From IMG/VR virus record IMGVR_UViG_3300027747_004168: a DNA stretch of 64,000 bases, one strand, 5' to 3'. The notes beneath the pieces were generated by a model. The model did no database searches, was not told the DNA's origin, and was given only the letters and a program-made list of their open reading frames with translations. The stretch is from an uncultured virus (IMG/VR IMGVR_UViG_3300027747_004168). Its lineage: Duplodnaviria > Heunggongvirae > Uroviricota > Caudoviricetes. A program made the translations under genes and the position numbers. Shown here in pieces: positions 2,575-63,995 of the stretch; within the stretch, counting starts at the first letter, position 1, and every line of letters starts with the position of its first letter.

Positions 2575-3111
2575 GTGGTTTGTGTTTTGGGGTTTGTTTC
2601 CTTCTGTCTTGGAATCCTGGCCGTGGTTGTTTCATCGAGGAATGGTTCCGAGCGTTTGTTGTTCGGTGAGTTTTTGGGTTCTTTGGGGAGGTTGTCTTGG
2701 GATCCCTGTGTCTCTAAGGATCCTGGTTGGGAGTTTTCCTCGTTGGTTTCTGCGTTTGGGGTTTCTTCGAGGGAGTCGTGTCGGTGGGTTTCGCACTGGT
2801 ATCGTCTGGTTGGTCACGAGTTTGACTATGAGCCTGTTGTTCGGGCGTATGTGATGCGTTGTCTGGGGCACAGTTTGGACAGGGGGTTGGTGTTTGGTTT
2901 CCCCCGGCTTTTGCCTGTTTGCGCGCTGGTGTTTTTTGGGGGTCGGTGGCGGGACTGTGAGGGGGTGGTGTCTGGGGATCACGGTGCTTGTTATCTGTAC
3001 GCTCGGGTTTTGGGGGGTCGGTTGCCGGTTGTGATGCACAATCGGATGGTGATGGAGAGTTATTTGGGCGAGTCGTATTTCATTCGGCGTTATTTGTCTG
3101 ATTTTTGTTGA
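2575..3111 (+). CDS. paralog family B (YA..V..GRLP..HN.M); start uncertain
   Basis: GGRWRDCE, YLYARVLGGRLPVVMHNRMVMES. Confidence 0.65.
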   Translation: MVCVLGFVSFCLGILAVVVSSRNGSERLLFGEFLGSLGRLSWDPCVSKDPGWEFSSLVSAFGVSSRESCRWVSHWYRLVGHEFDYEPVVRAYVMRCLGHSLDRGLVFGFPRLLPVCALVFFGGRWRDCEGVVSGDHGACYLYARVLGGRLPVVMHNRMVMESYLGESYFIRRYLSDFC

Positions 3112-3255
3112 TGTGGTATGTTCTAAGGAACCCGGTTGGGGTGGACTGTTGGTTGTCGCCCGATGGAGGGTGGCGGGCAGGCTCGAAGAAAGTCTGCCGT
3201 GGTGGAATGGAGTTTGTCGGGCGGTTGTGTCCGACCTAACTAGGAGACCCTTTCG

Positions 3256-4347
3256 ATGGCCGACACTTTGATTGAGAAGGGCAACCCGATTTCTGGCGAC
3301 CTCATTTCGGAGGTTCGGGCGTGCCGTGAGGTGGATCAGCCGATGCTGGTGTTCGGTGCCCCTGGCGTGGGCAAGAGCGACCAGATTCGTTCCAGTGCGG
3401 ACGAGGACGATCTGGTGATCGACCTCCGGCTCAACAGTTTGGAGGCCATTGACATGCGCGGCCTTCCGGTCATCCGTAAGGACGAGAACCGCAATCCTTT
3501 GGATGTGCAGTGGGTTCGTCCCGAGTTCCTTCCTTCGGAGGCGGGGATCGTGGTGGGTGGCAGGTGCTACACGAAGGGGATTGTGTTCCTCGACGAGTTG
3601 AACACGGCCCAGCCGTCTGTCCAGAATCCTGCTTTGCAGTTGGTTCTGGATCGTCGGATTGGCAAGCACGAGCTTCCGCGTTCGTGGTACATCTGTGCCG
3701 CGGCGAACCGTGCGGAGGATCGGGCCCACACCTATCCTTTGTCGGCGGCGTTGCTGGATCGTTTTGCGATCTATGACTACACGCCGTCGCACCAGCACTG
3801 GACTTCGTGGGCGATGCGGACGGGTGTTCACCCCGATGTGATCGGCTACATTTCTTTCAGTCCTTCGGCGTTGCTGTCGCCCCGCAAGGACGAGTATTCG
3901 GCCTCGGCCAATCCTCGTTCGTGGGTGGTGGTGTCTCGTCGGCTCAAGGCTGGTCAGAAGAGTTCGCACCAGATCCGTGCGTGCGTGGGTTCGCAGGCGT
4001 CGGAGTTTTGTGCCTATCTCGAGGTGTGTGCTTCGTTGCCCAACATCGCCAAGTTGGTAGCGGGCAAGGAGACTTTCACCGAGGATCGGCGGAAGATTTC
4101 GGTGGCCTATGCGGTGGCTAACGCGGTGGCGTCCCATCTCATGCAGCATGACGATCCGAAGTCGGTGGTGGAGAACTGCGTGAAGGTGGTGGCGGGCATT
4201 TCGCCCGAGCCGGCCTCCCTGTTCTTCCGCCGTGTGATGTTGTCTGGCAACGAGAAGTTGAAGTCCATGCTGTTCCACAGTCAGGCGGTGACGAAGTGGA
4301 TCAAGGACAACAGCGAGTTGCTGCACGGTGCGATCACCGTGACCTGA
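3256..4347 (+). CDS. MoxR-like AAA+ ATPase
   Basis: Walker A GAPGVGKS, Walker B IVFLDE, AAAN sensor, LLDRF arginine finger. Confidence 0.9.
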   Translation: MADTLIEKGNPISGDLISEVRACREVDQPMLVFGAPGVGKSDQIRSSADEDDLVIDLRLNSLEAIDMRGLPVIRKDENRNPLDVQWVRPEFLPSEAGIVVGGRCYTKGIVFLDELNTAQPSVQNPALQLVLDRRIGKHELPRSWYICAAANRAEDRAHTYPLSAALLDRFAIYDYTPSHQHWTSWAMRTGVHPDVIGYISFSPSALLSPRKDEYSASANPRSWVVVSRRLKAGQKSSHQIRACVGSQASEFCAYLEVCASLPNIAKLVAGKETFTEDRRKISVAYAVANAVASHLMQHDDPKSVVENCVKVVAGISPEPASLFFRRVMLSGNEKLKSMLFHSQAVTKWIKDNSELLHGAITVT

Positions 4348-4456
4348 GCAAAGTGTCGGCCTTGCCCCCTCCCCCCTGGTTTCTTTGGGGGAGGGGGCGG
4401 GGTCTTTGCTCGAAGGAACCTCGGTCTTTTGGAACAGGGTGCAAGGAGACACGACC

Positions 4457-5731
4457 ATGACTGCGACTGCCAATCCCCGTATCGCCAAGTTCGAGAAGGA
4501 CCTCAAGGTCATCATGCTGGCGTTCGCCCGCGAGTTCCCGTTTTGGGGTGTGATTTCGGAGCGTTGTCGTTTCAGCGTGACCGAGAACAAGGGTCTGTGC
4601 GACACGGCCTGCATCACGCCCACGGGTCACATCATCTTCAACATGGACTTCTACGAGGGTCTGACGCAGAGGCAGTTCCTCTTCCTCGTCGCCCACGAGA
4701 TCTGCCATTTCATCTTCGAGCACGCCGGTCGCAAGGGTTCGCGTGACCATTTCCTTTGGAATGTCGCCACGGACTTCGCCATCAACCTCATGCTCAAGTT
4801 CCAGTTTGAGAAGCCCGACTTCTTGCTCAAGGACATCATGCTTGACGAGAAGTACGAGGGCTGGACTGCGGAGCGGATCTACGAGGACGTGGTGAAGAAC
4901 CCGCCGAAGAAGCCCAAGGTGTATGTCCTTGACTTGTCGGATGACGGTGCGGACGGGGAGGACGGCGAGGGCGAGGGCGAGGGCGAGGGCCCTGGCTCTG
5001 GCGACATTGTGGTGATCCGCGACCGTCGCGTTCCCCTGCCGAAGAAGGACAAGGGCAAGAGCGACGAGCAGCACCGGCAGGAGGTGAAGGACTGGATCCG
5101 CAACGCGATCTGCGAGGGCTATGCCACGGCGAAGTCGCAGGGTTCGATGCCGGCGGGCATGGAGCGGGTGATCGTGGGTCACTTGAAGCCGAAGGTGAAC
5201 TGGCTGCAGGCACTTCGCCAGCGGTTGCGGTTCGGTGCCTCCCGCAAGGCTTCCCGCGACATTACATGGACTGTGCCGAATCGGCGGTTCCTCGGTGCGT
5301 CCTACATCTTCCCGTCGAACATCGGCCCCGACCAGCCGAAGATCGCGTTCGCCATCGACACTTCGGGTTCCATGAGCGAGGCCGACTTGAAGCAGGCTAT
5401 CGCGGAGTTGGAGGACATTCGCAAGCAGTTCAACGCGCAGGTCTACTTCCTCGACTGCGATGCGGGGGTGTATGAGTCGCGTTGGATCAGTCCCTACGAA
5501 CCCCTGCCGTGTTTGCAGGGTGGCGGCGGGACCGACTTCGCCCCCGTGTTCTCGCATCTGATTGAGAAGCGAATCCAGCCCGATTACTGTGTGATGTTCA
5601 CCGATGGCTACGGCAACTTCGGTGACGATCCGACGCAGAAGTTCGATGTGCTTTGGGTCATCACGAATCAGGAGGTCAAGCCTCCGTTCGGAGAGGTGAT
5701 CCGCGTGAGCGTGGACAACGACAGCAACTAG
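4457..5731 (+). CDS. DUF2201-type HExxH metallopeptidase-like plus VWA domain protein
   Basis: AHEICH, WNVATDFAIN, MIDAS DTSGSM, GGGGTDF, FTDGYG; typical partner of the upstream AAA. Confidence 0.9.
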   Translation: MTATANPRIAKFEKDLKVIMLAFAREFPFWGVISERCRFSVTENKGLCDTACITPTGHIIFNMDFYEGLTQRQFLFLVAHEICHFIFEHAGRKGSRDHFLWNVATDFAINLMLKFQFEKPDFLLKDIMLDEKYEGWTAERIYEDVVKNPPKKPKVYVLDLSDDGADGEDGEGEGEGEGPGSGDIVVIRDRRVPLPKKDKGKSDEQHRQEVKDWIRNAICEGYATAKSQGSMPAGMERVIVGHLKPKVNWLQALRQRLRFGASRKASRDITWTVPNRRFLGASYIFPSNIGPDQPKIAFAIDTSGSMSEADLKQAIAELEDIRKQFNAQVYFLDCDAGVYESRWISPYEPLPCLQGGGGTDFAPVFSHLIEKRIQPDYCVMFTDGYGNFGDDPTQKFDVLWVITNQEVKPPFGEVIRVSVDNDSN

Positions 5732-6127: not shown

Positions 6128-6400
6128 ATGGAAGTCCGAAGCCTGACGTCGATCTGGAATGTGGTGACCAAGTTCGCCCAGAGGGGCATGGATCCCGCGG
6201 GGCACATCGAGTCCTTCCTGGTGAACGTCGAGCAGTTCCTCGAGGGGTCGGCCGGCGAATCCCACGAACCGTACCATGTTCGGGAGCTCTGCCAGAAGCT
6301 CGACCAGTTCAGCGCCCAGCCTTACGCGGATGTTCCCGAGGAGCTTCTGGAGAGGCTCAACAAGGCCGCGTCCGAGATCCGAAAGCTCATTCAGGAGTGA
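6128..6400 (+). CDS. hypothetical
   Basis: Motif promoter at ~6094. Confidence 0.65.
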   Translation: MEVRSLTSIWNVVTKFAQRGMDPAGHIESFLVNVEQFLEGSAGESHEPYHVRELCQKLDQFSAQPYADVPEELLERLNKAASEIRKLIQE

Positions 6401-6404
6401 ACCG

Positions 6405-6602
6405 ATGACATTCGAACCGTACAGGCTTCAGGACATGGGTGGTGAGCGTGCGATCCGCATCCTCTCGACCCTTCTCGCGGAGTTGAGCGACATCGACCCG
6501 TCCGAGATGACCACATTCGAGCTCAACATCCTTCGGGCCTGCGCGGAGAACCCGCCGCCGCCGATGACGCCGTTACCGATCCGTCTAGGGAGGTTTCGAT
6601 GA
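6405..6602 (+). CDS. hypothetical
   Basis: AGGAG RBS, coupled to the next gene. Confidence 0.55.
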   Translation: MTFEPYRLQDMGGERAIRILSTLLAELSDIDPSEMTTFELNILRACAENPPPPMTPLPIRLGRFR

Positions 6603-6952
6603 GGAAGGTTAGCGATTCTATCACGCAGGGCGAGCGGCTTCTCGAGGACAAGGTCGGCTCATTGAACGACCATCTCGAGTCCTGCCGAAAGAGGCTCAAC
6701 GAGTTTGCGGACTCGAACGGCGTCGAGGGCGCCCTTCAAACCCCGCACGCCCAGAACGTCGCCCAGTACAGCCATGTGGTCCAGGAGCTCTCGGGGATCC
6801 TGGAGAAAGGGGAGGGCCTTGACGCCGCCCTGCGCCAGTGGATCGGGGTTGCGGTGGCCGAGTTGCGCGACCTGGACACGCCCCGCTGGAAGTCCCTTGC
6901 GACCGCCACGATCCTCGAGGCTCTCCGTGATTGCGTGGAGTTCGAGGGTTGA
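6599..6952 (+). CDS. hypothetical
   Basis: GGAGG RBS, ATGA overlap. Confidence 0.65.
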   Translation: MRKVSDSITQGERLLEDKVGSLNDHLESCRKRLNEFADSNGVEGALQTPHAQNVAQYSHVVQELSGILEKGEGLDAALRQWIGVAVAELRDLDTPRWKSLATATILEALRDCVEFEG

Positions 6953-7125
6953 CCCGGCTCGGTCGTTTCGTGTACAAGACTGGCCCCCGTTTGGGCTGCG
7001 GCGTTCGCCCCTGACCGTCGCAGTTTCGGCCGCGTGGCCGGCGGGGTTCTTATTCCCGGTGCGGGGTTTGGTTTAGGACGGCCTTCCGGACGCACCTTCG
7101 GACGGCCAGGACAACGGAGGTTCTG

Positions 7126-7473
7126 ATGAAGCTCGGATTTATCGCCCTGGTTCTGTGCCTGTGTCTGGCCGGCGTGGCCCATGCCCGTCCGCGTCGAGGG
7201 TACACCTACAACACGACGCCCGCCGCGTCCTACACGACCTCCCACGCGGAGTCCGGCTCCGACCAGGACCGGTGTCAGGCCGAGGCCGAGTACATGGCCG
7301 CCAACGGCATCGCTGGGCATGTGTGGGGGACCATCGGTAGGTTCGAGGGCGTCGGCTACGGCGGCTCCCCCGAGTGCAACACCTGCACGCCCGGCTCCGG
7401 CATGACCCTCACGGGCGACGGCAAGGCCCAGGGGCGGAACGGGATGTGGTATAGAGTTCGGAGCTGGCGGTGA
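7126..7473 (+). CDS. secreted Cys/Gly-rich protein
   Basis: Signal peptide MKLGFIALVLCLCLAGVAHA; GGAGG RBS. Confidence 0.75.
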   Translation: MKLGFIALVLCLCLAGVAHARPRRGYTYNTTPAASYTTSHAESGSDQDRCQAEAEYMAANGIAGHVWGTIGRFEGVGYGGSPECNTCTPGSGMTLTGDGKAQGRNGMWYRVRSWR

Positions 7474-7704
7474 CTACAATACTCGTGGCCTCCGGTTGGG
7501 AGGATGCGATGATTGAATGAAGGATGGTGGGCTTCTCGGCCTGCATTGTGGGGCTGGTCGTAATATTTTATTAGAGGTTTCTGAATAACGGCGGGAGTCG
7601 CTTCGGAGGGTTGGGTGAATCCACCACGCCCTTATCCCCTTCGGAGCGTCCCGCCGTTATTGCTTCCATCCTCTAAGGAACCCTTCCGCCCGGGACTGTC
7701 CTCC

Positions 7705-7998
7705 ATGCCAGTCAAACCCGCGAAGAAGCCCGGCCTGCCGAGGGATGTGGAGAGGCGCATCAGGGATCGTCCCTACTACGCCTACCTCTACGCCGCCAAC
7801 GTCCTGCGTTCCAGGCTCCCGGAGCGGCTCGAGCTGGCGCTCAAGGACGACCCGCACAGCGCCCTCCTGTACGCCCAGAACGTCGTGGGCGGTCGGCTCC
7901 CCGATCCCGTCCACAACGCCCTCGTGATGTACTCCCTCGAAAAAAGGGACGCCGGCGGGCATGTGTCGGAGTACCTCAAGTGGCTGGAGGAAGCGTGA
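7705..7998 (+). CDS. paralog family B
   Basis: YLYAANVLRSRLP...LLYAQNVVGGRLPDPVHNALVM. Confidence 0.75.
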   Translation: MPVKPAKKPGLPRDVERRIRDRPYYAYLYAANVLRSRLPERLELALKDDPHSALLYAQNVVGGRLPDPVHNALVMYSLEKRDAGGHVSEYLKWLEEA

Positions 7999-14382: not shown

Positions 14383-14577
14383 ATGAACTTCATTTTCTTC
14401 GTTCTGTGCTGGCTGGTGGGCATCGTGGGCTCGGACGACGGCCATGCGGACCGGATCCGCGCCCGTGGCAAGTGCAGGGACATCAAGGTCCGGTGCCACG
14501 AGGTCGTGGTCAGGTTCACCTGCGACGAGGACGCCAAGCTCTTCGCCGATGACCTCAAGAACTTCATAAGGGAATAG
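14383..14577 (+). CDS. small hypothetical with hydrophobic N-terminus
   Basis: AAGGAG RBS. Confidence 0.55.
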   Translation: MNFIFFVLCWLVGIVGSDDGHADRIRARGKCRDIKVRCHEVVVRFTCDEDAKLFADDLKNFIRE

Positions 14578-14579
14578 GC

Positions 14580-14768
14580 ATGGACATCATCAAGATCGTC
14601 TCCGACATGGTGGAAGTCCGGCAGGACATCCAGCAGCTCTCCCGGGACATCGACTACAAGACCCGGCGGATGGACGTCCTCATCGACGAGCTCCTGGACT
14701 ACATGAAGCACAAGAGGATCGTGGAGACCTGCACGGTGTCCTCGAAGAAACCATCCCCCCACGGATAG
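14580..14768 (+). CDS. small coiled-coil hypothetical
   Basis: ORF running into the next motif. Confidence 0.55.
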   Translation: MDIIKIVSDMVEVRQDIQQLSRDIDYKTRRMDVLIDELLDYMKHKRIVETCTVSSKKPSPHG

Positions 14769-14791
14769 AGCGTCGAAAGGAACCCCCTCAA

Positions 14792-15496
14792 ATGAACAGC
14801 GTCGGCCAATACACGATGGTTTCCCTCGACAAGACCCTGAAGTTCGGGCGTCGCAGCTTCCGTGTCGTTGTCTACGGGGCGTACAACGCGCTCGGCCTGA
14901 TCGGCCCGGAGAACAACGGAATCGCGGTGCTCGACGAGGACAGGATGCAGGTTATCCTCGACGGGCACTGCCCCCAGGACAACGGCTACTACGGCCCCAG
15001 CGAGGCCCAGGCGTCCGAGTGGCGTCGGATCTGCGGGATGGACGCCTGCGAGTTCGTGGGGTTCTGCAACTCCCATTCCATGAGCAGGGAGCCCGTGAGC
15101 CTCGAGAGCAAGGTCAACCGCAAGCCCCCGTTCAACGTGGGCAGGTACATCAACATCGCCACTACGCCCGTGGCGTACAACGAGTCGGCCAAGCGCGAGT
15201 TCCTCCGCACGGGCGAGCAGATGGCCATCCTCATGGCCTCCAAGATGGGCCTCAACGAGGACCAGTACGAGGTGCGGGTCAACAAGGGAGGGATCGCCGT
15301 CTCGGGCGATGTGGTGCTCCACACGGACGCACACTACGTGAGACTTTCCCAGAGCACGGGCATCCTGGAGAGCGGGTTCCTCGTGCGTTCATGCGAGGGA
15401 CGAGGGGACTTCACGGGAGGCAGGAACCACTTCGTGAAGTGGGAGGACCTGCGCGACCTGGACAAGGTTTGCGAGTTCATCCTGGGACTTCGATGA
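14792..15496 (+). CDS. hypothetical phage protein
   Basis: Motif promoter; NKGGIAVSGDVVLH. Confidence 0.75.
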   Translation: MNSVGQYTMVSLDKTLKFGRRSFRVVVYGAYNALGLIGPENNGIAVLDEDRMQVILDGHCPQDNGYYGPSEAQASEWRRICGMDACEFVGFCNSHSMSREPVSLESKVNRKPPFNVGRYINIATTPVAYNESAKREFLRTGEQMAILMASKMGLNEDQYEVRVNKGGIAVSGDVVLHTDAHYVRLSQSTGILESGFLVRSCEGRGDFTGGRNHFVKWEDLRDLDKVCEFILGLR

Positions 15497-19812: not shown

Positions 19813-20454
19813 ATGATCAAGGTATTCAAGCAACTACTCCCAAAGGACAGGCACTACCACCTCGCCGTCAGCATGGGATCCGACAGCGTCGCGGCCCTGT
19901 TCTGGATGCGCTGGAAGGGGTACAGCTTCACCCCCCTCCACTTCAACCACAACCTACGGGCCCAGAACGGCGTCATGCACGAGAGGTTCCTCGCGCTGTG
20001 CGACAAGCTCAACCTGGAGGGCAGGAGCGACGTCTGGGACAGGTACAAGGGGACGGAGGCCGAGTGTCGCGAGGCCAGGCTCGGGTTCTACTCGAGGGTC
20101 GCCAAGGGCGGCACAATCGTCACGGCCCACCACCTCAACGACTGGGTCGAGAGCTACCTGCTCAACTGCCTGCGCGGCCACCCCGGAAGACGACCGTTCG
20201 AGCTCGAGAGCAAGTTCCCCGACTTCACCGTCGTACACCCCTTCCTCCTCTCAAGAAAACAGGACTTCAGGGAGTTCCTCGAGAGGAACGGGTGGACGGA
20301 GTGGGTCGTGGAGGACGAGTCCAACAGAGTCACACAGGGTTCAAGGCGCAACTGGATCCGTAGATCCATAATCCCTGAGATGGATCGGCAGAGGCTCTCC
20401 CTCGAGAAGTTCGCCGCGAGGAGGATCAGGAAGATGGCGGAGAGCGTGGTTTAG
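19813..20454 (+). CDS. tilS: tRNA(Ile)-lysidine synthase, catalytic domain only
   Basis: PP-loop AVSMGSDS, HFNHNLR, REAR..FY, TAHHLND..E..LLN..RG, EDESN, RRNWIRR. Confidence 0.85.
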   Translation: MIKVFKQLLPKDRHYHLAVSMGSDSVAALFWMRWKGYSFTPLHFNHNLRAQNGVMHERFLALCDKLNLEGRSDVWDRYKGTEAECREARLGFYSRVAKGGTIVTAHHLNDWVESYLLNCLRGHPGRRPFELESKFPDFTVVHPFLLSRKQDFREFLERNGWTEWVVEDESNRVTQGSRRNWIRRSIIPEMDRQRLSLEKFAARRIRKMAESVV

Positions 20455-30444: not shown

Positions 30445-31449
30445 ATGAAACTCTCAATCGAAAGCCTCGAGACGCGGTCCATGATGGCCGCGAACTGCAT
30501 CGACCCCGAGATCCGGTCCCTCTACACGAGCGGATACGCGGACGGCCAGCTCGGCCGGGCCGAGGTCGTCAACATCTTCAGGAGCGCCACTGACGGAGGC
30601 CAGGTGTCGGCAAACGAGGCCCTGGACCTCAGGAACATCGTGGTCGGCAGCAACATGCCCGCCTCAGTGAAGTGCCTGGCCACCGACGTCCTCGACGCCA
30701 AGCCCACGGCGGCCACCATGAACCAGCTCATCGACAAATGGTTCTACGGCAAGGACCGGCCGTCGCTCGGGGGCTTCACGGGGATCTCCTACCAGACGGT
30801 GAGCGGAACCCTGTTCGTGGGCGGCGCTTCAAGCTCCGACATCCAGCAGGGGGGCGTGGGCGACTGCTACCTCCTGACCTCCCTCGGGGCGGTGGCCGAC
30901 AAGCTCGGCGGTACGGTCAACACCATGTTCGCGGACAATATGGACGGCACATGGGCCGTGAGGTTCTACAAGCTCGACGGCACCAGGTACATCGAGGACT
31001 GGGTGACCGTGGACAACCAGCTCCCCGTGAACTCAGCGGGCTTCTCCGTGTTCGAGAACTTCGGGTCTAACCGCACGAGCCCGACGAACGAGCTCTGGCC
31101 CGCCCTCGCCGAGAAGGCCTACGCGCAACTCGTCAGGGGCAACTCCTACGCGGGACTTTCCGGGGGCTGGTCCAATGTCGTGTTCGGCCAGGTGACCGGA
31201 CGGACGGCCATCAGCAGCCTCGACGCCACGGCCACAACGGCCCTCGCCTCATACGTCTCGCAGGGGGCCGCGGTCGTGATATACAGGTACATGGACGACG
31301 CCCACACGCGGGGGCACGCCTACTACGTCAAGTCATACAGCAACGGGGTCTTCCAGCTCCAGAACCCGTGGGGGTACGCCCACCTGTCCCTCGACGCCAG
31401 CCAGATCCGGAGCCAGTGCTACGGGTTCGCCGTCGCCACCAGGGTATGA
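30445..31449 (+). CDS. calpain-like (C2) cysteine peptidase with planctomycete-type N-terminal motif
   Basis: QGGVGDCYLL, WPALAEKAYA, GHAY, QNPWG; N-terminal LSIESLETRSMMA. Confidence 0.85.
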   Translation: MKLSIESLETRSMMAANCIDPEIRSLYTSGYADGQLGRAEVVNIFRSATDGGQVSANEALDLRNIVVGSNMPASVKCLATDVLDAKPTAATMNQLIDKWFYGKDRPSLGGFTGISYQTVSGTLFVGGASSSDIQQGGVGDCYLLTSLGAVADKLGGTVNTMFADNMDGTWAVRFYKLDGTRYIEDWVTVDNQLPVNSAGFSVFENFGSNRTSPTNELWPALAEKAYAQLVRGNSYAGLSGGWSNVVFGQVTGRTAISSLDATATTALASYVSQGAAVVIYRYMDDAHTRGHAYYVKSYSNGVFQLQNPWGYAHLSLDASQIRSQCYGFAVATRV

Positions 31450-47001: not shown

Positions 47002-47655
47002 ATGAAGCGCACCCACAAGAGGATAGGGACGCCGGCCGCCGTCGCCATAGCCCAGCCCAGGCGCGAGCCCAAGACCGTCGTAGTCGTGGGCAGCGGCCGG
47101 GGAGGCACGAGCGCGATAGCCGGATCCATCCACCTCCTCGGCATAAGGATGATGGAGGACGAGGGATCCCTCAACTCCGAGGACTCCGAGATCGTCAGGG
47201 CATACCAGCGCAAGCGGCCGGGAGGGCACCAGGCGGCCGCCAGGGAGGTCGCCAGGATAATCGAGGAAAGGAACGCCGCGCACGACTTCTGGGGCTGGAA
47301 AGACCCGTCCGCGGACCTGTACCTCGAGTCAGTTATAAACCACGTCAGGAACCCGCACTTCGTTTTCGTGCTGAGGAACCTCCTGGACGTGGCGCTCTCC
47401 CACGTCGCGACCAGGACCGGCACCCTGGAGGCGGGCTTCGACTCCGCGCTGAAGAGGTACGCCAGGTACTGGGACATCCTACAGAAGCTCCATTGCCCGA
47501 CCCTCATGGTCAGCTACGAAAGGGCCGTCCTGGACCGAAACGCATTCGTCAAGGAGGTCTCGAACTTCCTCGGCATGAAGCCCTCCAGGTCCCAGGCGAA
47601 GTCCGCCCGAGACTTCCTCGACCCGGCCGGCGGGTACAGGCCCACAAGGAGCTAG
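47002..47655 (+). CDS. sulfotransferase-family protein
   Basis: VVGSGRGGTS (PAPS loop), WGWKDP, LRNLLDVALS, VSYE. Confidence 0.8.
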   Translation: MKRTHKRIGTPAAVAIAQPRREPKTVVVVGSGRGGTSAIAGSIHLLGIRMMEDEGSLNSEDSEIVRAYQRKRPGGHQAAAREVARIIEERNAAHDFWGWKDPSADLYLESVINHVRNPHFVFVLRNLLDVALSHVATRTGTLEAGFDSALKRYARYWDILQKLHCPTLMVSYERAVLDRNAFVKEVSNFLGMKPSRSQAKSARDFLDPAGGYRPTRS

Positions 47656-48383
47656 CGCCTCAGCCAGGAAAGCAGCGGCCCAGGATCCGAAAGCCCCTTG
47701 TAGGCCCGCTGTTCCTGGTTCATTCCCTCGATCGCGGCCGCCAGCGCCATCCGGTCGTAGTCCTCCACCAGGTACTGCCTGAGGATGAACAGGCAGCAGC
47801 CCAGCCGGGGGAACCCCACCGTCACCTGGCGCTCCACCTTCACAAGGACCAGCGGCCTCTCGATGGAGAAGATCGAACTGGGAACCGAGGGGTGGAAGTC
47901 GTAGCGACGGTCGTGCACCACGCTCCAGACGAACCTCTCGAAGCAGCCCTCGGCGCACATCGCCTGGACTATCTTGCCCGAGTTCGCCAGGTTCATCGGC
48001 ACCGGCCGGTGAATCTCCTCCCAGGAACGACCCAGCTTGTCCCTGGGCTCCCAGTGGCTCGGGAAACAGACGTGTGCGGCCGCGAGCCAGTCCCTTCCGT
48101 CCGCAACCCGGTGCACCATCAGGTCCTCAGGTATCCTCGAGGCCACCTCAAAGAGGCTCCCCAAGGGCCTCCAGGGGTGCCAGGAGCCGACCCAGGCCCC
48201 GAGGGTGTCCAGGATGCCCCTGGGGCAGTCGGCCTCCAGGACGGCCTCCCTGGCCCCCAGGATGGCCCTCTTCTCCTTCATGATCCGGCCGCTCTCGTCC
48301 TGGCGCGGCTCGAACACCTCGGCCGGCTCGATGCGCCTCAGGTTGGGCAGCGTGCTGTAGCCGTCTTTGTATGGGTGGTACAT
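47652..48383 (-). CDS. DUF3445 / heme-dependent oxidative N-demethylase alpha-like protein
   Basis: PEDL..AAHVCFPSHWEPRDKLGR..IHRPVP, ERFVWSV, VKVERQ, YKGL. Confidence 0.75.
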   Translation of the reverse strand: MYHPYKDGYSTLPNLRRIEPAEVFEPRQDESGRIMKEKRAILGAREAVLEADCPRGILDTLGAWVGSWHPWRPLGSLFEVASRIPEDLMVHRVADGRDWLAAAHVCFPSHWEPRDKLGRSWEEIHRPVPMNLANSGKIVQAMCAEGCFERFVWSVVHDRRYDFHPSVPSSIFSIERPLVLVKVERQVTVGFPRLGCCLFILRQYLVEDYDRMALAAAIEGMNQEQRAYKGLSDPGPLLSWLRR

Positions 48384-55699: not shown

Positions 55700-55885
55700 G
55701 GAGCCCCTTTGCGGCATTTCCCGGGACTCCGAAACCCTCCGCGCTGGCGCGGAAACCAGGTACCATCTCCCCCTTTGCGGCATTTCCGGGAACCCAGAAA
55801 TAATGGGGTTTTCCGCTGGGAATCGGCGCCGAGTCGGCCCCTGCGGCATTTCTGGGAACCCAGAAATAATGGGGTTTTCCGCATG
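55700..55885. repeat. direct repeats, second putative origin
   Basis: 41-bp TGCGGCATTTC(C/T)GGGAACCCAGAAATAATGGGGTTTTCCGC at 55776-55816 and 55842-55882; partial copy at ~55704. Confidence 0.65.
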
Positions 55886-55949: not shown

Positions 55950-56894
55950 TCAATGGATGTCCGAGGACCCGACCGGCTCGATCCTGTCGGCCTTCCTGGC
56001 GGCCTTGTTGTAGGCGTTCACCACGAAGTTGGCGATGTTCACGGTCCTGCCGCGTCCGTCGGGGGTGCCGCAGCGGGTGCGGAGCCCGGCGGGGGTGAAC
56101 TTGGACAGGGTCTGGACGAGGGTCCTGCGGTTGACCTGCCCGCGGTTCTTGACGAGGACGGCGGCGACGGGGTGGAACACGGTCACCTGGAACGCCTCTT
56201 CGATGAGGCCCCAGGTCGACTTGATGACGTCGATGGTGTCCTCCAGGACGCCCCTCTCGTGGGCCCAGCAGACGGGGACGATGCAGGTGACGGGCACGTT
56301 GCCGGCCCTCTTCATGCCCTTGACGCACAGGCCCTTCCCGTTGAGGATGTTGGCCACGCGGATGCAGGTCTGGTCCCCGGCGGTGTGCTTGGCCTTGAAG
56401 ATGTCGGTGGGGGAGACCCTGGAGCTGTCGTTGCGGCCGGTGAACATGTCCGCCTCCTCCTTGCGGCCCGAGTCGGGGACGACCTCGCACCAGACGCTCT
56501 TGATGTAGCCGGGCCGGGACGCGTTGATCATCTCGATCGCGGCGATCCTGTGCTGGCAGTCGACCCCGAAGAACTTGCCGTCCCGGTCGGCCACCATGGG
56601 GATGCCGAGCTTCTTGATGTCGAAGTTCGCGGCGATCTTTCGGGCGTGGCCGGGCTTGAACTTCCGCTGGTAGGAGTGATCGAAGTTGATCGCGTCCACG
56701 CGGATCAGGCGGATGTCGGGCTTGGGCGGGTTCTCGCCGTAGGTCTTATGGGAGTCCCTCCCGAGGTTGGCGAGGATGGCCATCTCAAGCCTTGTGAGCT
56801 TCTTGGCCTTGGGGGCTTCTTTCTTGTCGGCCTTGTGGGCCTTCCCCCTTGTGGGCATGGGGATGGCGAGGGTGGCGGCATTCCTGCGTGTCAT
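55950..56894 (-). CDS. ParB/Srx-fold (DUF6551-like) protein
   Basis: DHSYQR, GIPMVADR, VDCQHRIAA (DGQHR-like), EEADMF. Confidence 0.7.
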   Translation of the reverse strand: MTRRNAATLAIPMPTRGKAHKADKKEAPKAKKLTRLEMAILANLGRDSHKTYGENPPKPDIRLIRVDAINFDHSYQRKFKPGHARKIAANFDIKKLGIPMVADRDGKFFGVDCQHRIAAIEMINASRPGYIKSVWCEVVPDSGRKEEADMFTGRNDSSRVSPTDIFKAKHTAGDQTCIRVANILNGKGLCVKGMKRAGNVPVTCIVPVCWAHERGVLEDTIDVIKSTWGLIEEAFQVTVFHPVAAVLVKNRGQVNRRTLVQTLSKFTPAGLRTRCGTPDGRGRTVNIANFVVNAYNKAARKADRIEPVGSSDIH

Positions 56895-58023: not shown

Positions 58024-59643
58024 CTAGAAGGTCCGGAAGGCGGAGAGGTCGGCCGCCGCCGCCTCGTACCCCGTGGCGCCGAAGCCCTGTATGATTTCGT
58101 TGATCGAGGGGCCGTCCTGGGACGGGGACGGGTTCAGGGACGGCAGTGACCCGGTGTCCAGCCCCGCGAGGACCATCTGGTTCGGCGCGATGGGGACGAA
58201 CACGGGCGACCCGGAGTCTCCCGGCACTCCGCCGTGGCCGTACTTGTACTCGATGCCGAGTGCGGTCTCCTCGAGGAAGTCGGGTGGGATGGGTATCATG
58301 ACCGGCCCCTGGCCCGACGGGTTCCAGCCGAGCGGGGCCTCGACTGCCGCGGGCGTCTGGTCGGCTGGGAAGAGGGCGGAGTCCCAGGTCTGGTTCGTGA
58401 GGTTCTCCAGCAGGTGGGGCTGCGCGTTCTTCTCCTGGTCGCAGAGGATGGAGAAGCATCCCGTGAAGGGCGCGGACGCGTCCGCGCTCCGGTAGTGGCC
58501 GTCGTTCCTGTAGTACACTTTTTGGCCGGCGGCGGGGAAGTGGTCGCCGAGGTCGGAGCCGAACGCCGGGTAGACCGCTATGTCGTCGGGGACGTCCTCG
58601 TCGAGCATGGTCATGCCGAAGTCGCCGGGGGCCGTGTACCTGGCCTGGATGGTCCGCTCCACGACGAGCCCCTGCCTGGAGACGAACCTCACGGTGGCCC
58701 CCACGGCCGGCGTGTAGTTGGCGTGCTTGGCGTGGACCATGTGCCTCTTGGTGACGAGGGTGCCCGTCTTGGTCCTCCTTGTCCAGGAGTCGCTGTCGGA
58801 GTTGTACACGCTCACCCCGCTGAAGTCGAAGTCGTAGAAGAACGGGTTCGCCCTGTACTTCGGCGGGCCGAACTCGATACCGTCGTTCGTCTGCGGCGAG
58901 CCGACCCACCTGCCGTCGTTCTGTATGATGTAGACTTCGTTCCTGCGGAGGGCCTCGAAGCCCCCGAACCCGGAGCCGTTGTGCTTGAACGGGTTCCACT
59001 TGAGCATCCGGTTCGGCGAGGAGGACTTGTCGATGTACACCTTGTTGGCCGCTTCGGGGTGGGACAGGTTGTAGTCCGCGAGCGACGCGTACTGCTGCGG
59101 GCCGTCTATCACCACGACGTCCTCGGTCGGGTCCAGTCCCCACGACGGGTCGTAGTTGATGTCCCCGGAGGGGAACGCGAGCCTGCCCTGGGTGGCCGAA
59201 AGGAAGCATCCGAGCGAGCTGGCCCCGAGCGTGCCGGGCAGGTAGCCCTTCATGATGTGGATGGCCGGCCTCGTGGCCGAGCCGAGGGAAAGTTCGCGGG
59301 TGAGGTAGGTTCCGCCCCTAGCCTTCATGGCGGCCCTGCAGGAGCCGCCGGACTGCCTGGTCACCAGCCCTTCTTGGTCGACGGACGCGACCTGCTCGTC
59401 CGTGGCGGAGTACTCGGCCGGCGGTGCGGCTCCGCCCTCCCACACGGGGCTGACCTGGTAGGCGTCCTCGAAAGTGGTCTCGGAGAGCAGGTCGCACAGC
59501 TTGTCGTGGAACTCTACGTCGGCGGTCAGCGAACCCCCGCCGACCTCCACCCTGGAGGCCTCCACTTCGAATCCCGACAGCCTCTCCGTGTCCTTGGGAA
59601 CTATCTTCTTGTTCGGGTCTTCTGAGGGCAGTATCGAGGTCAT
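58024..59643 (-). CDS. Ig-like plus trypsin-like serine protease domain protein, probably virion-associated
   Basis: YSATDEQVASVDQEGLVT (BIG2); GTLVTKRHMVHAKH, DFGM, GDSGSPVF. Confidence 0.75.
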   Translation of the reverse strand: MTSILPSEDPNKKIVPKDTERLSGFEVEASRVEVGGGSLTADVEFHDKLCDLLSETTFEDAYQVSPVWEGGAAPPAEYSATDEQVASVDQEGLVTRQSGGSCRAAMKARGGTYLTRELSLGSATRPAIHIMKGYLPGTLGASSLGCFLSATQGRLAFPSGDINYDPSWGLDPTEDVVVIDGPQQYASLADYNLSHPEAANKVYIDKSSSPNRMLKWNPFKHNGSGFGGFEALRRNEVYIIQNDGRWVGSPQTNDGIEFGPPKYRANPFFYDFDFSGVSVYNSDSDSWTRRTKTGTLVTKRHMVHAKHANYTPAVGATVRFVSRQGLVVERTIQARYTAPGDFGMTMLDEDVPDDIAVYPAFGSDLGDHFPAAGQKVYYRNDGHYRSADASAPFTGCFSILCDQEKNAQPHLLENLTNQTWDSALFPADQTPAAVEAPLGWNPSGQGPVMIPIPPDFLEETALGIEYKYGHGGVPGDSGSPVFVPIAPNQMVLAGLDTGSLPSLNPSPSQDGPSINEIIQGFGATGYEAAAADLSAFRTF

Positions 59644-60425
59644 TTTGTCCTCTGGACTTCGATCAGGCTACCCTCGCAGATGAAAATGCCGCCGCCGTCG
59701 TTTGATCCCCATCCGCACCCGACGGTGATGGAGTCGCCTTGGTTCAGGCTGAAGAAGAACTCCGACTCGAACACGAATACGTGTTGTTCGCCGGGGGCGT
59801 CGATCCACACGACGGGCGAGCCGCAGATAAACTCGAAACCTGGGAACCAAGCCGACTCCATCCGCTTGTCGTAGGATTTCTTGGGGGCGTTGTTGGGTCC
59901 GTATTGTTCGATCTGGTACATTCCCATCGAAATGACGGGCGAGAGCATCGAGTCCCAGCCGTAGACGTACGCTATGGGGGAGGAGGCTTGCGATAAGAAT
60001 AAGGCCCTGCATGATCCCCTGTATTGGCAGCCGCCCTCGTCGGAGCAACCGATTGTCAGGGCGAGTGTCTCGTCGAGGTCGGCCTCGTCGTAGCTCAGCC
60101 CGGCCGTCCTCGTTGTTCTCGTCAGCCTCTGCTGCATGCGGGTCTTGCTTTGGACTTGCACCCCCCCGAGGTTGATTCCGTCGCCGACCCTGAGCGTCCT
60201 TTCGTCGGTGACGTACGCCAGCTGCCCGAGCGGCAGCACGTATGAGTCTATGACCTGTTGGGCGTCTGATCTTATGGCTACGTTGGCCTCGATGGCGTCC
60301 GGCAGCGAGCTCTCGACGAGCTGGGCCATCGTGATCTTCTTGGTGGAGCCTTCGTTGACGACGGGGACGAAGTCCTGTCTGTCTGGGTTGGTCACCGCCG
60401 ACAGTTCCGAAATTCTTTGTTCCAT
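59640..60425 (-). CDS. putative tail/fibre structural protein
   Basis: RISEL..D.VPVV..TKKIT; LGQLAYVTDERTLRVGDG; TAAATA upstream. Confidence 0.65.
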   Translation of the reverse strand: MEQRISELSAVTNPDRQDFVPVVNEGSTKKITMAQLVESSLPDAIEANVAIRSDAQQVIDSYVLPLGQLAYVTDERTLRVGDGINLGGVQVQSKTRMQQRLTRTTRTAGLSYDEADLDETLALTIGCSDEGGCQYRGSCRALFLSQASSPIAYVYGWDSMLSPVISMGMYQIEQYGPNNAPKKSYDKRMESAWFPGFEFICGSPVVWIDAPGEQHVFVFESEFFFSLNQGDSITVGCGWGSNDGGGIFICEGSLIEVQRTK

Positions 60426-60487: not shown

Positions 60488-60694
60488 CTACCAGTGGCGG
60501 ATTATGTTGGCGATCACGAACCCGCAGGTGACCAGGTTGGCGAGGACGAGGAACAGCCTGATCCAGAAGGAAGCCATGGCCTCGTCGACGGTGAGCCTCG
60601 GCAGCTCTGGCGGGTCCTCGTCCCTTGCCCCTATCCTGTGGTCCAGGGCCCTCGCCAGCACCATGACCCACTTGCTCCTTATGCTTTTCCCCAT
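60488..60694 (-). CDS. small membrane protein
   Basis: ARALDHRIG...IRLFLVLANLVTCGFVIANIIRHW; AGGAGG RBS. Confidence 0.7.
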   Translation of the reverse strand: MGKSIRSKWVMVLARALDHRIGARDEDPPELPRLTVDEAMASFWIRLFLVLANLVTCGFVIANIIRHW

Positions 60695-60831
60695 GGCTTC
60701 GTTCCCTCCTATGTTATCTAGCGCCTCGGCCGCGGCGGCCGAGCGTCGTCGGAAGAAATCGCGCCGGGTGTGGCGCCGACGGGGGGTGGCCGCCGCGATA
60801 CGGCCGGGTGCCCGGTTTTAGTACTCCGCAA

Positions 60832-61095
60832 TCATGCGCAGGCTGGCAGGCTTGGGGAGCAGACGTCGTTCGGGGTGGTGGTGGTGCAGGTGTCGTTGTT
60901 GGGGCCGCCAACGCCGCAGCAGTAGGCCCCCGTGCCTCCGGTGCCGATCGCCACGGGTAGCGTGGCCCGAATGTCGGACATGTACTTGTCGAGCTCCTCG
61001 TCGGAGACCTCGACGGATTCGATCTCGTAGAGTATCTGCTCGTCCGTGATCCCCAGCACCCTTTCGGTCTCTTCGGCAGTGTTCAGATGAGGCAT
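60832..61095 (-). CDS. putative RiPP precursor (87 aa; acidic leader, Cys/Thr/Gly-rich core)
   Basis: GGAG RBS; EVSDEELD leader; core GTGGTGAYCCGVGGPNNDTCTTTTPNDVCSPSLPACA. Confidence 0.65.
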   Translation of the reverse strand: MPHLNTAEETERVLGITDEQILYEIESVEVSDEELDKYMSDIRATLPVAIGTGGTGAYCCGVGGPNNDTCTTTTPNDVCSPSLPACA

Positions 61096-61736
61096 GGTCT
61101 TGATGGCTCCAGAATGTATGTTGCGAACTGCGTTTGGTGTTCCGGCCCGATTTTCGGCTGTCGGGGGGCGCCCTCGGGAGGGGCCGAGAAGAACTCTTCC
61201 ACGTATTCCGTATATAAGCGTTCCTCGAGCGTTTTGAGCCTGGAATCTCGGAAGCAGCGCCTGTAGAACCCCACCGGGTCGTCGAGGTGGAGGGCGTGGA
61301 TGCCCCCGAGGTCGTAGAAGAGGTGGCAATACGCCTTGTTCACGCCGAAGAGGTGCGTGCCGATCCTCGATATCCGGGGGTGGCACAGGGCGAACATCCT
61401 CCCCAGCGGGTAGATCCTCCTCCTGCACTCTGCGAGGAGCCTTTTCGCGTCGTCCTCCGTGGGCATGTGGTCGATGACGTCGTACAGCACGACGAGGTCG
61501 TAGGCCTTCGAGATTCGGCCGACTTCGCTGGCGTGTGCGTCGTCGCACCCCTCAAGCCACTTCGAGAGGCCGTTGGGCTCCAGGTGGACGTTGAGGATGG
61601 ACTTGTATTCCTTGAGCTTCAGGCTCGAGCTCAGCATCCTCCACTTCCCTATGGACGCGAGCTCGGGGTCGTCTCCGAGGTATCGCTCGTGGATGGCCTT
61701 TGGCCAGTCCTTGTGGAGTTCAGGATTTTCCGCCAC
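61083..61736 (-). CDS. class I SAM methyltransferase-like protein (degenerate motif I)
   Basis: YDLVVLYDVIDHM; LAECRRRIYPLGRMF. Confidence 0.7.
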   Translation of the reverse strand: MAENPELHKDWPKAIHERYLGDDPELASIGKWRMLSSSLKLKEYKSILNVHLEPNGLSKWLEGCDDAHASEVGRISKAYDLVVLYDVIDHMPTEDDAKRLLAECRRRIYPLGRMFALCHPRISRIGTHLFGVNKAYCHLFYDLGGIHALHLDDPVGFYRRCFRDSRLKTLEERLYTEYVEEFFSAPPEGAPRQPKIGPEHQTQFATYILEPSRPCLI

Positions 61737-62922
61737 AAGCGCTCGCCTTGACGTTCGAGGTCAGGATGTCCCTGGACGCCAGCTCGTCCACCATTTCCTT
61801 CAGCCCCGTCATGTTGCAGTACTTGCTCGGCTCTTTCGCGGTGAACTCGCTGTTCTGGCATCCTCCCCAGCAGTACGCCACCACGGGGCACTTGTCGGTG
61901 CAGGTCTTGTCCTTGAGTATGTTCAGCCTTCCCCGGATCTTCGCCTCGTAGTGTCGCTCTAGCGACTCCATGTCGTACGAGGTTCCGAACTCCGCCAGCT
62001 TCAGCGGCTCGGCGTCCGACAGGCCGAAGTAGTCCCCGACGATCTCGTTCTTGGAGTTCACGGTGAACAGGCCCATGTACCTGTAGTCGCAGCACATCCT
62101 CTTGAACATTTTGGGCGTCTTGAGGCAGTCGAGGTATATCTGGTCCGGCTCGGGGTTCTGCCTCGTCGGGTAGCAGGTGCCGTATATGATTTTCTTCACG
62201 CCGATCTTGAGCAGGCTTTTGAAGAACTCCCTCTGCTTCTCCGGGTCGTACACTTCCTGCTGTATTGCCGCCTGGACGGTCATCCTCTCGCCCATCCCCA
62301 GCTTGACCAGCCTCGCCAGGTTGCAGAATGTCCTTCTGTGCGGGTTGACCGACTTGTCGGCGGACTTCCGCTGCCAGTTGTGCTGGTCTTCGAGTCCGTC
62401 GAGGCTCACGTCGACGTAGGACATTGACAGCAGTCTTACGGAGTCTGCGTCGAGGGGCAGGGCGAGGTTCGTGGTCAGCGAGCAGTTCACGTTCTCCTGG
62501 CCGAACTCGCCGATTAGGCCTTCGAGGATTTCTAGGCACTCGCGGGCCTTGATGAGGCACTCCCCGCCCAGGAATGAGACGTTGAACTTCCTCGTCCCGT
62601 ATCTCTCCTTGTGGGCTCGGCAAAGCCTGACGAGGTCTGCTGGGTCTATCTTGCACTCGTCTCTGGCCTTGAGGAGTCCCAGCACGCAACAGTGGTTGCA
62701 CCTCAGGTTGCATTCCCACGTCGGCAGTATCCTGAGCGACAGTTCTTCTTTCGGCGGGCTGAACAGCCTCCTCTCGAGCGATTCCCCCTCCTGCCCCGCG
62801 AGGAAGAGTCCGTCCTCGAGCTCGTCGAGCGGCGCGTCCTCTGGCAGGCTCTGCTGCGTCATGGTGTTGTAGAGGACGCCCTCCGTCCTGACAACGTACC
62901 TAGATGTCAAATTATGCAGCAT
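61720..62922 (-). CDS. radical SAM/SPASM protein
   Basis: CNLRCNHC, FLGGE, TTN, VSLDG..HNWQR; C-terminal CTDKCPVVAYCWGGC..C. Confidence 0.92.
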   Translation of the reverse strand: MLHNLTSRYVVRTEGVLYNTMTQQSLPEDAPLDELEDGLFLAGQEGESLERRLFSPPKEELSLRILPTWECNLRCNHCCVLGLLKARDECKIDPADLVRLCRAHKERYGTRKFNVSFLGGECLIKARECLEILEGLIGEFGQENVNCSLTTNLALPLDADSVRLLSMSYVDVSLDGLEDQHNWQRKSADKSVNPHRRTFCNLARLVKLGMGERMTVQAAIQQEVYDPEKQREFFKSLLKIGVKKIIYGTCYPTRQNPEPDQIYLDCLKTPKMFKRMCCDYRYMGLFTVNSKNEIVGDYFGLSDAEPLKLAEFGTSYDMESLERHYEAKIRGRLNILKDKTCTDKCPVVAYCWGGCQNSEFTAKEPSKYCNMTGLKEMVDELASRDILTSNVKASACGGKS

Positions 62923-63995
62923 ATGTTGTCCACCACCCTGCTTTTGTCGAAGCCCTTCCAGAACGTCGGATACTTGTATCTCCCAACAAGATAAGAGCGA
63001 TAGGGCATGTATTTCGCCTCGCGGCCTTTGAGGAATGAATTTATCTCGGCCCTGTCGTCCTCGGGCAGTCTGTTCTTCTCCCCGTGGTCGAACATGTCGT
63101 GGTATATGTGGAACACCCCGGGTTCCGCCTCTATGAACTGCATGTTCAGCATTCGGGATTTGATTTTGGTTATGAGCTCATGCCCCGAGAGGTATTCGCC
63201 GTCGATCATGGGCCTTTGCTTGTAGTGGGGTACGAACCTGTATTCGCATCTGGTCCTCCCGCACCCGCACGGCTCGAATCCTCGGACCTCCATGATGTCC
63301 GACTTCTTGAACGATGCCTTGGTCAGGTTCAGCAGGTTTGTGACTCTCCCGCCCCTCTCGGACCATATCGGCACTATGTGTCGTCCGCCGTGCTCGCACT
63401 CGTGGAAGTTGACGCCGGTCTTCCAGTCCACCATGCGGTCCAGAGCGTTGATCCTGCGCTTGTCGTAGAAGGCGTCCCAGCAGGACGAGAATATGCGGGC
63501 TTTGCCGGCCGCGAAGTACTCGGCCAGCGTGTCGTGGCATCCCATCATCATGACGACGTTGGGGAACGCCTCCAGCACCGCATCCCCCCTTTTCTCGAGC
63601 CTTCCGAGTAGGTACTCGGCGCCCTTTTCGCACGTGAGGTCCGCGAAGATCGAGTCGCCCAGTTCGGCGAACCGTTCGACCTGGTAGAAGTCGAATCTGC
63701 AGTTCAGCATGACGCGTCTCTTGCGGGACCGCCTCTGTCTCTCCTCGAATCCCCTCACCACATGGGTGCAGTTGGGGCCGAACGCGTATTCGGACTCCTC
63801 TTGGCCGGACCCGTTTGATTTCATCTGGCGCGCCTCCACGGGCTTGCGGAAGCCGCGGTGGACCTCCTCCATTTCGGCCATGTCTGACTCGTAGTTCGAG
63901 AAGTCGTATTCGAATGCGTTGTCCAGGAACTCCTCTGCGGACTCCCTGTCCAGCCTGTCTAGGTATCGGCGGTAGGACTCTGTCATCGCCGACAT
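62907..63995 (-). CDS. phenylacetate-CoA ligase/CapK-like adenylating protein (divergent)
   Basis: KSNGSG (TSGSTG-like), FHECEHGGRH, VTNLLN, PCGCGRT. Confidence 0.55.
   Translation of the reverse strand: MSAMTESYRRYLDRLDRESAEEFLDNAFEYDFSNYESDMAEMEEVHRGFRKPVEARQMKSNGSGQEESEYAFGPNCTHVVRGFEERQRRSRKRRVMLNCRFDFYQVERFAELGDSIFADLTCEKGAEYLLGRLEKRGDAVLEAFPNVVMMMGCHDTLAEYFAAGKARIFSSCWDAFYDKRRINALDRMVDWKTGVNFHECEHGGRHIVPIWSERGGRVTNLLNLTKASFKKSDIMEVRGFEPCGCGRTRCEYRFVPHYKQRPMIDGEYLSGHELITKIKSRMLNMQFIEAEPGVFHIYHDMFDHGEKNRLPEDDRAEINSFLKGREAKYMPYRSYLVGRYKYPTFWKGFDKSRVVDNICCII

Follow-up and report, generated by a model that had tools for sequence, protein, structure and literature searches.

Here, we analysed a 64-kb stretch of DNA (64,000 nucleotides, in the following the window) from the uncultured virus record IMGVR_UViG_3300027747_004168 (Caudoviricetes), a contig of 146,977 bp, and found a cassette of four genes on the minus strand near the high-coordinate end of the window. 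The genes encode a ligase, here named ligX, a radical S-adenosylmethionine (SAM) enzyme, a methyltransferase-like protein and a cysteine-rich peptide of 87 amino acids (aa). Our analysis suggests that the cassette is a modification operon resembling those of peptides that are ribosomally synthesised and modified post-translationally (RiPPs), with the 87-aa product as its probable substrate. The following open reading frames (ORFs) make up the locus (GC3, G+C content at third codon positions):

62907..63995, minus strand: ligX, a compact ligase of 362 aa, adenylate-forming and of PaaK-type fold; ATG start; first operon gene seen in the window
61720..62922, minus strand: radical-SAM enzyme, 400 aa, with a SPASM-like C-terminal domain and seven invariant Cys; ATG start
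61083..61736, minus strand: class-I-methyltransferase-like protein, 217 aa, with a degenerate SAM-binding motif I; GTG start
60832..61095, minus strand: candidate precursor peptide, 87 aa; start at ATG61095, indicated by GC3, a GGAG site and homologues
60832-61548, minus strand: long ORF, the last 87 codons of which begin at ATG61095

Gene layout and the 87-aa peptide

Successive overlaps of the four genes, computed from the ORF coordinates, amount to 16, 17 and 13 nt, in agreement with the range of 13-17 nt given in the original prediction, a note made from the DNA letters before this analysis. The start of ligX lies 5 nt from the window end; alignments with its closest homologues (361 and 367 aa) begin at residue 1, so no part of the gene is missing.

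The gene for the 87-aa peptide had been predicted to hide inside a longer shadow ORF and to be preceded by a GGAG ribosome-binding site, and both points hold. GC3 is 0.83 in 60832-61095. Upstream (61096-61548), it is 0.42 in that frame and 0.83 in the frame of the methyltransferase-like gene; because this switch falls at ATG61095, the long ORF is the shadow and the 87-aa reading is correct. GGAG occupies the positions 15 to 12 nt 5' of ATG61095. Shadow ORFs are abundant in DNA of high G+C content, so the 87 codons could be an open frame by chance, but this is very improbable: the codon-bias switch is located exactly at ATG61095, and homologues of 84 and 89 aa share an invariant core. A protein search with the peptide returned three entries, namely an 87-aa protein of identical sequence (its cluster comprises 2 sequences from 7 contigs) and proteins of 84 aa (69% identity) and 89 aa (62%). 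As these proteins exist, the 87-aa ORF encodes a protein in its own right and not a piece of a larger one; the original prediction had considered a GACC-repeat protein, and no tandem repeats were found in 60600-61300.

The peptide consists of an acidic leader (..VSDEELDKYM..) and a core with five Cys (..GTGGTGAYCCGVGGPNNDTCTTTTPNDVCSPSLPACA). In the alignment, the pattern IRA.LPVA.GTGGTGAYCCG.GGPNN..CTT..PN..C.P..P..C is nearly invariant and the N-terminal leader varies, with 5/5 Cys kept in the homologues P0230 and P0231. The gene thus has what is generally expected of a RiPP precursor: it is small, conserved, adjoins a maturase gene with a 13-nt overlap, carries a coding signal and encodes a leader followed by a core. 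Leaders of the Nif11/NHLP type, with which the peptide had been compared, are likewise acidic with a ..SDEEL.. stretch and Gly-Gly ahead of the core. The analogy did not survive the profile searches, however, as the peptide matched 0 families in Pfam and NCBIfam at E<=0.1, Nif11/NHLP included, and no C39-peptidase transporter was seen here.

A radical-SAM enzyme close to peptide maturases

The 400-aa protein belongs to the radical-SAM superfamily, scoring 31.9 bits with the Pfam model Radical_SAM (PF04055; cut-off 29.5) and matching PHROG 1802 with an E-value of 2.7e-18. This agrees with its earlier identification, as do the cluster motif CNLRCNHC (CxxxCxxC) and the C-terminal cluster CTDKCPVVAYCWGGC...C, both of which are present in the sequence. 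A large protein search yielded 74 proteins at E<=0.001, the window's own included, and 30 of them, picked across the identity range, were aligned. PF04055 is matched by 29 of these members, and ten Cys are invariant in 30/30 (C71, C75, C78, C277, C278, C341, C345, C351, C355 and C369).

Seven of the invariant Cys lie outside the radical-SAM triad, in the spacing CC...Cx3Cx5Cx3C...x13C. The canonical SPASM motif, Cx9-15Gx4C ... Cx2Cx5Cx3C ... C, also has seven Cys. Judged by its sequence, the C-terminal domain is therefore SPASM-like: the number of Cys fits and the spacing differs. The SPASM assignment of the original prediction can thus be upheld less firmly: the seven-Cys count speaks for it, the spacing is unusual, and the SPASM model PF13186 matched 1/30 members (E<=0.05) and left the window enzyme unmatched. 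A conserved N-terminal extension of ~60 aa is visible in the 30-member alignment; it compares with ~85 aa for the winged helix of a RiPP recognition element, and none of the 30 members matched a PqqD-family Pfam model (E<=0.05).

Searches in NCBIfam gave 33 weak matches, of which the top ones are mostly peptide maturases with MoaA cyclase models in between. Membership of a named peptide-maturase family was not found, as all scores are far under the cut-offs and cover the core only (bits/cut-off: PapB, NF047865, 42.2/340; HxsB 41.2/370; CefB 32.7/600; CcpM 32.6/500). The family profile searched against the PDB gave 5wgg as best match (E 3.2e-18), followed by other peptide-modifying radical-SAM enzymes including SkfB and YydG. 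The entry 5wgg is titled only 'Radical SAM domain protein'; we take it to be CteB, the thioether-forming SCIFF maturase. Because the nearest profiles and structures are peptide maturases, we assign to the window enzyme a putative linking of Cys sulfur to carbon.

In SCIFF/CteB (5wgg), PapB-type ranthipeptide (NF047865) and sactipeptide (SkfB) systems, a radical-SAM enzyme with additional Cys for auxiliary clusters likewise adjoins the gene of a small Cys-rich leader peptide. In contrast to these systems, a ligase of PaaK fold is the fixed partner here and the setting is that of huge phages, while the similarity is limited to the radical-SAM core (residues ~61-227). A role in defence was considered and rejected, as the sole indication, a viperin-type match to the core (E 1.9e-5), reflects general radical-SAM similarity.

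ligX, a ligase with a PaaK-type fold

By sequence, ligX has no match in Pfam, NCBIfam, PHROG, PADLOC or the PDB (profile search of the PDB: best E 0.39). At E<=0.001, an exhaustive search with HMMER yielded at least 161 cluster representatives, mostly of similar length, and 50 members picked from the 150 listed were aligned. The AlphaFold model computed from this alignment (predicted local distance difference test, pLDDT, 93.1; predicted template modelling score, pTM, 0.90) has the two-domain ANL fold of the PaaK type. The PaaK-like ligase of the original prediction is thus confirmed in its fold but not by sequence profiles, since AMP-binding Pfam families matched 0/50 aligned members, which leaves ligX outside ANL/PaaK sequence-profile membership. 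A search of the ESM Atlas gave nothing usable (Atlas model pLDDT 0.30, top feature score 0.77).

The aligned members share the consensus SNGSTG..Y.FGP, which reads SNGSGQ in the window protein, and W191, C200, H206, N223, D233, C243, C245 and K341 are invariant. SNGSTG sits in a loop between two strands and K341 is close to the C-terminus; the two may correspond to the P-loop (S/T-S/G-G-S/T-T-G) and the catalytic Lys of ANL enzymes. Compared with the PaaK-family ligases PaaK1 (2y27), BT_0428 (4r1l/4rvn), NatL2 (6tm4), AjiA1 (6wuq) and ClxA (9s45), ligX is ~10-13% identical, ~60-70 residues shorter and always found beside a radical-SAM gene. Within an enzyme fold that is well studied, it hence forms a branch that is an orphan by sequence and has a fixed radical-SAM partner. 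The Cys/His set C200, H206, C243 and C245 suggests a metal site, of a kind that is not known to occur in PaaK enzymes.

A methyltransferase-like partner

The 217-aa protein reaches 17.8 bits with Methyltransf_11 (E 0.0053), under the cut-off of 21.2. In BLASTP it matches proteins adjoining ligX in two related loci, L047 (E 1e-13) and L045 (E 6e-9), and both counterparts match Methyltransf_23 above the cut-off. In the ESM Atlas, the feature score to class I methyltransferase clusters is 0.92, with 164 shared features. An AlphaFold2 model from four sequences was too poor for a structure search (pLDDT 41). Class I methyltransferases carry the Gly-rich SAM-binding motif I, GxGxG. The candidate positions read SIGKW or LNVHLEPNG, and the L045 relative has IGCGTG. 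As GxGxG is absent from the window protein and from 3/3 database homologues, its activity is doubtful; of the methyltransferase claimed earlier, homology to Methyltransf_23 proteins remains, set against Pfam scores below the cut-off and the missing motif.

Recurrence of the cassette

Close relatives of all four proteins exist. Those of ligX (P0076), the radical-SAM enzyme (P0003), the methyltransferase-like protein (P0228) and the peptide (P0230) are each recorded on exactly one contig of 8531 bp, and contigs of 8922 and 14850 bp carry the ligX, radical-SAM and methyltransferase-like proteins. The four-gene set thus appears to be conserved in relatives that are 50-69% identical. In freshwater metagenomes of three further studies, the cassette DNA is nearly unchanged. 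Among single nucleotide polymorphisms in freshwater populations, 7/10 are synonymous third-position changes, and the four in the gene of the 217-aa protein are all synonymous. No RNA runs carrying the cassette were listed.

More distant relatives were reached by alignment-based scans, which gave 5 loci in Acidobacteriota assemblies, 8 on 6 IMG/VR contigs and ~17 in metagenome contigs; single-sequence scans of IMG/VR with the radical-SAM enzyme and with ligX had returned no match. The radical-SAM gene and ligX are adjacent in 13/30 related loci examined, mostly on huge-phage contigs. Two of the 13, L042 and L043, have identical coordinates and scores, which leaves 12 distinct loci. In 10/13, the gap between the two genes or the flank holds an ORF of 57-92 aa with a CxC motif and >=3 Cys near its end, and in L044 and L056 this ORF is duplicated in tandem. 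The peptide of L061, excluded from a model of seven peptides, was retrieved by that model at E 2e-8. Together with the close homologues, these loci bear out the expectation, formulated beforehand as a check by synteny, of a conserved small Cys-rich ORF next to related radical-SAM genes.

The gene order varies, rSAM-peptide-ligX (rSAM, radical-SAM enzyme) being the commonest and ligX-rSAM-methyltransferase-peptide that of the window. The peptides of the distant cassettes have in common with each other only a short aromatic-CxC...C motif. What they have in common with the window peptide is only where they lie, how large they are, an acidic leader and an end rich in Cys. A profile built from 11 distant-cassette peptides did not detect the window peptide, so the link between them is one of position and architecture only. 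An apparent match at E 4.6e-19 was discarded as circular, as the window peptide was part of the model; homology of the peptides is unproven.

Do the enzymes act on the small peptide at all? Their target might instead be a metabolite, a nucleotide or some protein of phage or host, with the small gene serving another purpose. PaaK-family enzymes usually activate small aromatic acids, according to the titles of the structural matches, the five Acidobacteriota loci have the radical-SAM gene without ligX and small Cys ORF, and the window peptide has no detectable homology to the peptides of distant cassettes. We nevertheless regard another target as unlikely. A small Cys-rich ORF stands in the gap or flank of most loci with both enzyme genes, twice in tandem, the four genes are apparently together in a relative 50-69% identical, and the 13-nt overlap points to translational coupling of the peptide gene.

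Several cassettes have further genes. Locus L047 holds two further radical-SAM genes and a second, weak ligX-like gene (2665-5061, 14390-15460); in L042/L044, two family-2 glycosyltransferase genes lie directly upstream of the radical-SAM gene (6290-7995); in L058, a sulfotransferase gene (1814-2362) follows the peptide gene, and the cassettes of L040 and L045 include methyltransferases. A NucS-like endonuclease gene adjoins the cassette in two huge-phage contigs (L041, 10443-11069, minus strand; L046, 9469-10092, plus strand). The radical-SAM homologues of the Acidobacteriota loci (L001-L005) are 34-40% identical and are surrounded by ordinary genes of cellular type, with one located on a chromosome of 4.1 Mb; in L004, the gene is broken into two frames (6646-7569 and 7566-7856).

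Probable phage setting

Five of the six viral records with related cassettes were examined: one has 354 kb (98% complete according to CheckV), and the others range from 67 to 340 kb (19-67% complete). One of the five has a terminase match, and three carry 2-3 ligX copies per record. The window itself contains ~50 kb of short same-strand ORFs, mostly without matches, two transfer RNA genes, and a MoxR-type ATPase, which matches 845 phage records with N4-like phages as the best and has a DUF2201/VWA partner.

The contig could also be plasmid DNA or part of a bacterial genome, so that the cassette would not be phage-borne here. No capsid, terminase or tail genes were identified in the 64-kb window, and among 50,697 phage records (cultured phages) neither the cassette nor its 539-aa and 261-aa neighbours had a DNA or protein match; in addition, cellular homologues of the radical-SAM enzyme exist, one of them in the Acidobacteriota chromosome mentioned above. 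Against a non-phage origin, which we thus consider improbable, stand the long run of unmatched short same-strand ORFs with two transfer RNA genes, the MoxR-type ATPase with its partner, and eight related loci on six IMG/VR viral contigs, one of which is nearly complete. The original prediction had placed the cassette beside late virion genes and its product on the virion surface. This was not substantiated: proteins encoded downstream of the peptide gene gave only Mtd_N (E 0.07) and a tail PHROG (E 0.27), without a phage or PDB match.

Proposed function

From these results, we propose that the cassette is a RiPP-like modification operon, probably on a large-phage fragment, and that its 87-aa product is the substrate of the encoded enzymes; we put the probability of this reading at roughly 0.7. 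The radical-SAM enzyme, with the CxxxCxxC motif and auxiliary clusters on seven further Cys, would abstract hydrogen from core residues and would most likely form bonds between Cys sulfur and carbon, which would result in thioether cross-links as in sacti- or ranthipeptides. ligX may adenylate a carboxylate at the expense of ATP; the carboxylate could be that of the peptide C-terminus, of the side chain of Asp or Glu, or of a small acid. Its coupling to an amine or thiol group in the peptide may follow and would lead to ring closure or acylation. The methyltransferase-like protein may methylate the product; alternatively, since its SAM motif is degenerate, it might only help binding.

Several observations weigh against this proposal. 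The profile of 11 distant peptides places the window peptide at E>10 among 1420 window segments, 316/2000 shuffles score as high, and pairwise Smith-Waterman z values between it and the distant peptides are <=1.9; moreover, its core has CC where distant cassettes have CxC. The criterion of CxC plus >=3 Cys was set after the peptides had been seen, and it selects 15 ORFs in 23.7 kb near the cassettes and 53 in 386 kb elsewhere. Three of the 13 loci with both enzyme genes (L045, L062 and L066) are without a small Cys ORF, and L001-L005 have neither this ORF nor ligX near the radical-SAM gene. Co-location of the four genes in the close relative was read from the same contig size of 8531 bp recorded for each protein. 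To these come the lack of identified virion genes in the window, the single PF13186 match among 30 radical-SAM family members and the missing motif I of the methyltransferase-like protein.

The peptide might also be a sacrificial scaffold in the manner of pyrroloquinoline quinone (PQQ) or mycofactocin biosynthesis, in which case a few conserved core residues would be turned by the radical-SAM enzyme and the ligase into a cofactor or a compound that binds metal, and the peptide would otherwise be discarded. The far stronger conservation of the core compared with the leader in three close homologues is in line with this, as are the short motif as sole common ground of the distant peptides and the occurrence of PqqE (6c8v, E 3.7e-4) among the weak PDB matches of the radical-SAM profile. 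We consider a scaffold unlikely, since no peptidase, oxidase or other partner of the PQQ or mycofactocin type was seen in the operon, the mycofactocin maturase model reached 18.8 bits against a cut-off of 265, and the best solved relative, 5wgg, taken here as CteB, is a peptide cross-linking enzyme.

Returning to a modified peptide as the product, we suggest as a tentative extension, possible rather than probable, that huge phages own a nearly phage-specific peptide class, in which a radical-SAM enzyme and ligases of a new PaaK branch act on one Cys peptide that becomes thioether-linked and ring-closed or acylated. Such a peptide could be made during infection, for example against competing phages or bacteria or against the host. 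The window would represent a high-G+C branch of this class with an added methyltransferase-like partner and a change from CxC to CC. To our knowledge, a combination of thioether cross-linking with ATP-dependent ring closure or acylation has not been described for any RiPP class, and we are aware of few reports of modified-peptide pathways on phages.

Within the literature searched, with subscription journals outside its coverage, no cassette of a radical-SAM enzyme, a PaaK-type ligase and a precursor peptide is described, in phages or otherwise, which to that extent agrees with the undescribed system announced in the original prediction. The nearest precedent seen is acyl loading onto a RiPP by NosI/NosJ in nosiheptide biosynthesis, where an adenylating enzyme of the acyl-CoA-ligase type works alongside radical-SAM chemistry (PMC5585349). 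There, the ligase activates an indolic acid derived from a different radical-SAM enzyme and uses a carrier protein (PMC5585349), whereas a carrier protein, a YcaO protein and a thiopeptide gene are not present among the Pfam and NCBIfam matches of our cassette. If a conserved cassette is present in several copies in genomes of >=350 kb, large phages would be putting resources into a peptide chemistry of their own. Once known, the reaction of ligX would probably extend the biosynthesis of peptide natural products by a new step, and the system is small, comprising three enzymes and an 87-aa substrate.

Neighbouring genes and further features

Directly after the peptide gene, two more features were found:

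60762..60781, minus strand: terminator-like hairpin with a T-rich tail, ~50 nt after the peptide stop; weak basis
60488..60694, minus strand: ORF of 68 aa with an AGGAGG site; segment at the C-terminus hydrophobic; GC3 0.90; PHROG 1679 (unknown function), E 2e-5

The hairpin possibly marks the end of the operon; terminator-like sites number 5 in the region and 3.9 +/- 2.0 in shuffles. Whether the 68-aa ORF belongs to the cassette is uncertain; related loci showed no counterpart, although no search aimed at one was made. Its product could help in immunity or export, or have nothing to do with the cassette.

Further downstream on the minus strand, an ORF listed with 343 aa is too long: its start lies at 60425 according to codon bias and an ATG, leaving a protein of 261 aa (59640-60425). 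Its sole match is Mtd_N (E 0.07), with none to phage proteins or the PDB, and its N-terminus resembles those of tail fibres. The adjacent gene (58024-59643, minus strand) encodes a 539-aa protein without a family match. A C-terminal PGDSGSPVF and an upstream His-rich stretch could, by visual resemblance, be a signature of trypsin-type serine proteases; if real, a role as leader peptidase or as an enzyme of the tail is conceivable.

Between convergent gene blocks, three 41-nt direct repeats with 66-nt spacing (55710-55882) lie by a ParB/DGQHR-like gene (55950-56894; DUF6551, E 1e-12). The last two hold the near-palindrome ATTTC(C/T)GGGAACCCAGAAAT, and the repeats are possible binding sites for the ParB/DGQHR-like protein. 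In the otherwise anonymous, early-looking region, a sulfotransferase-like gene (E 1.7e-5, just under the cut-off) abuts a gene for an HODM-like protein (E 6e-20) on the opposite strand (47002-48383), and a PP-loop ATPase is encoded at 19813-20454. A calpain-family cysteine protease (30445-31449, plus strand; E 1.3e-18) weakly matches a 'Planctomycete extracellular' motif at its N-terminus (E 0.0018), which may point to the host group.

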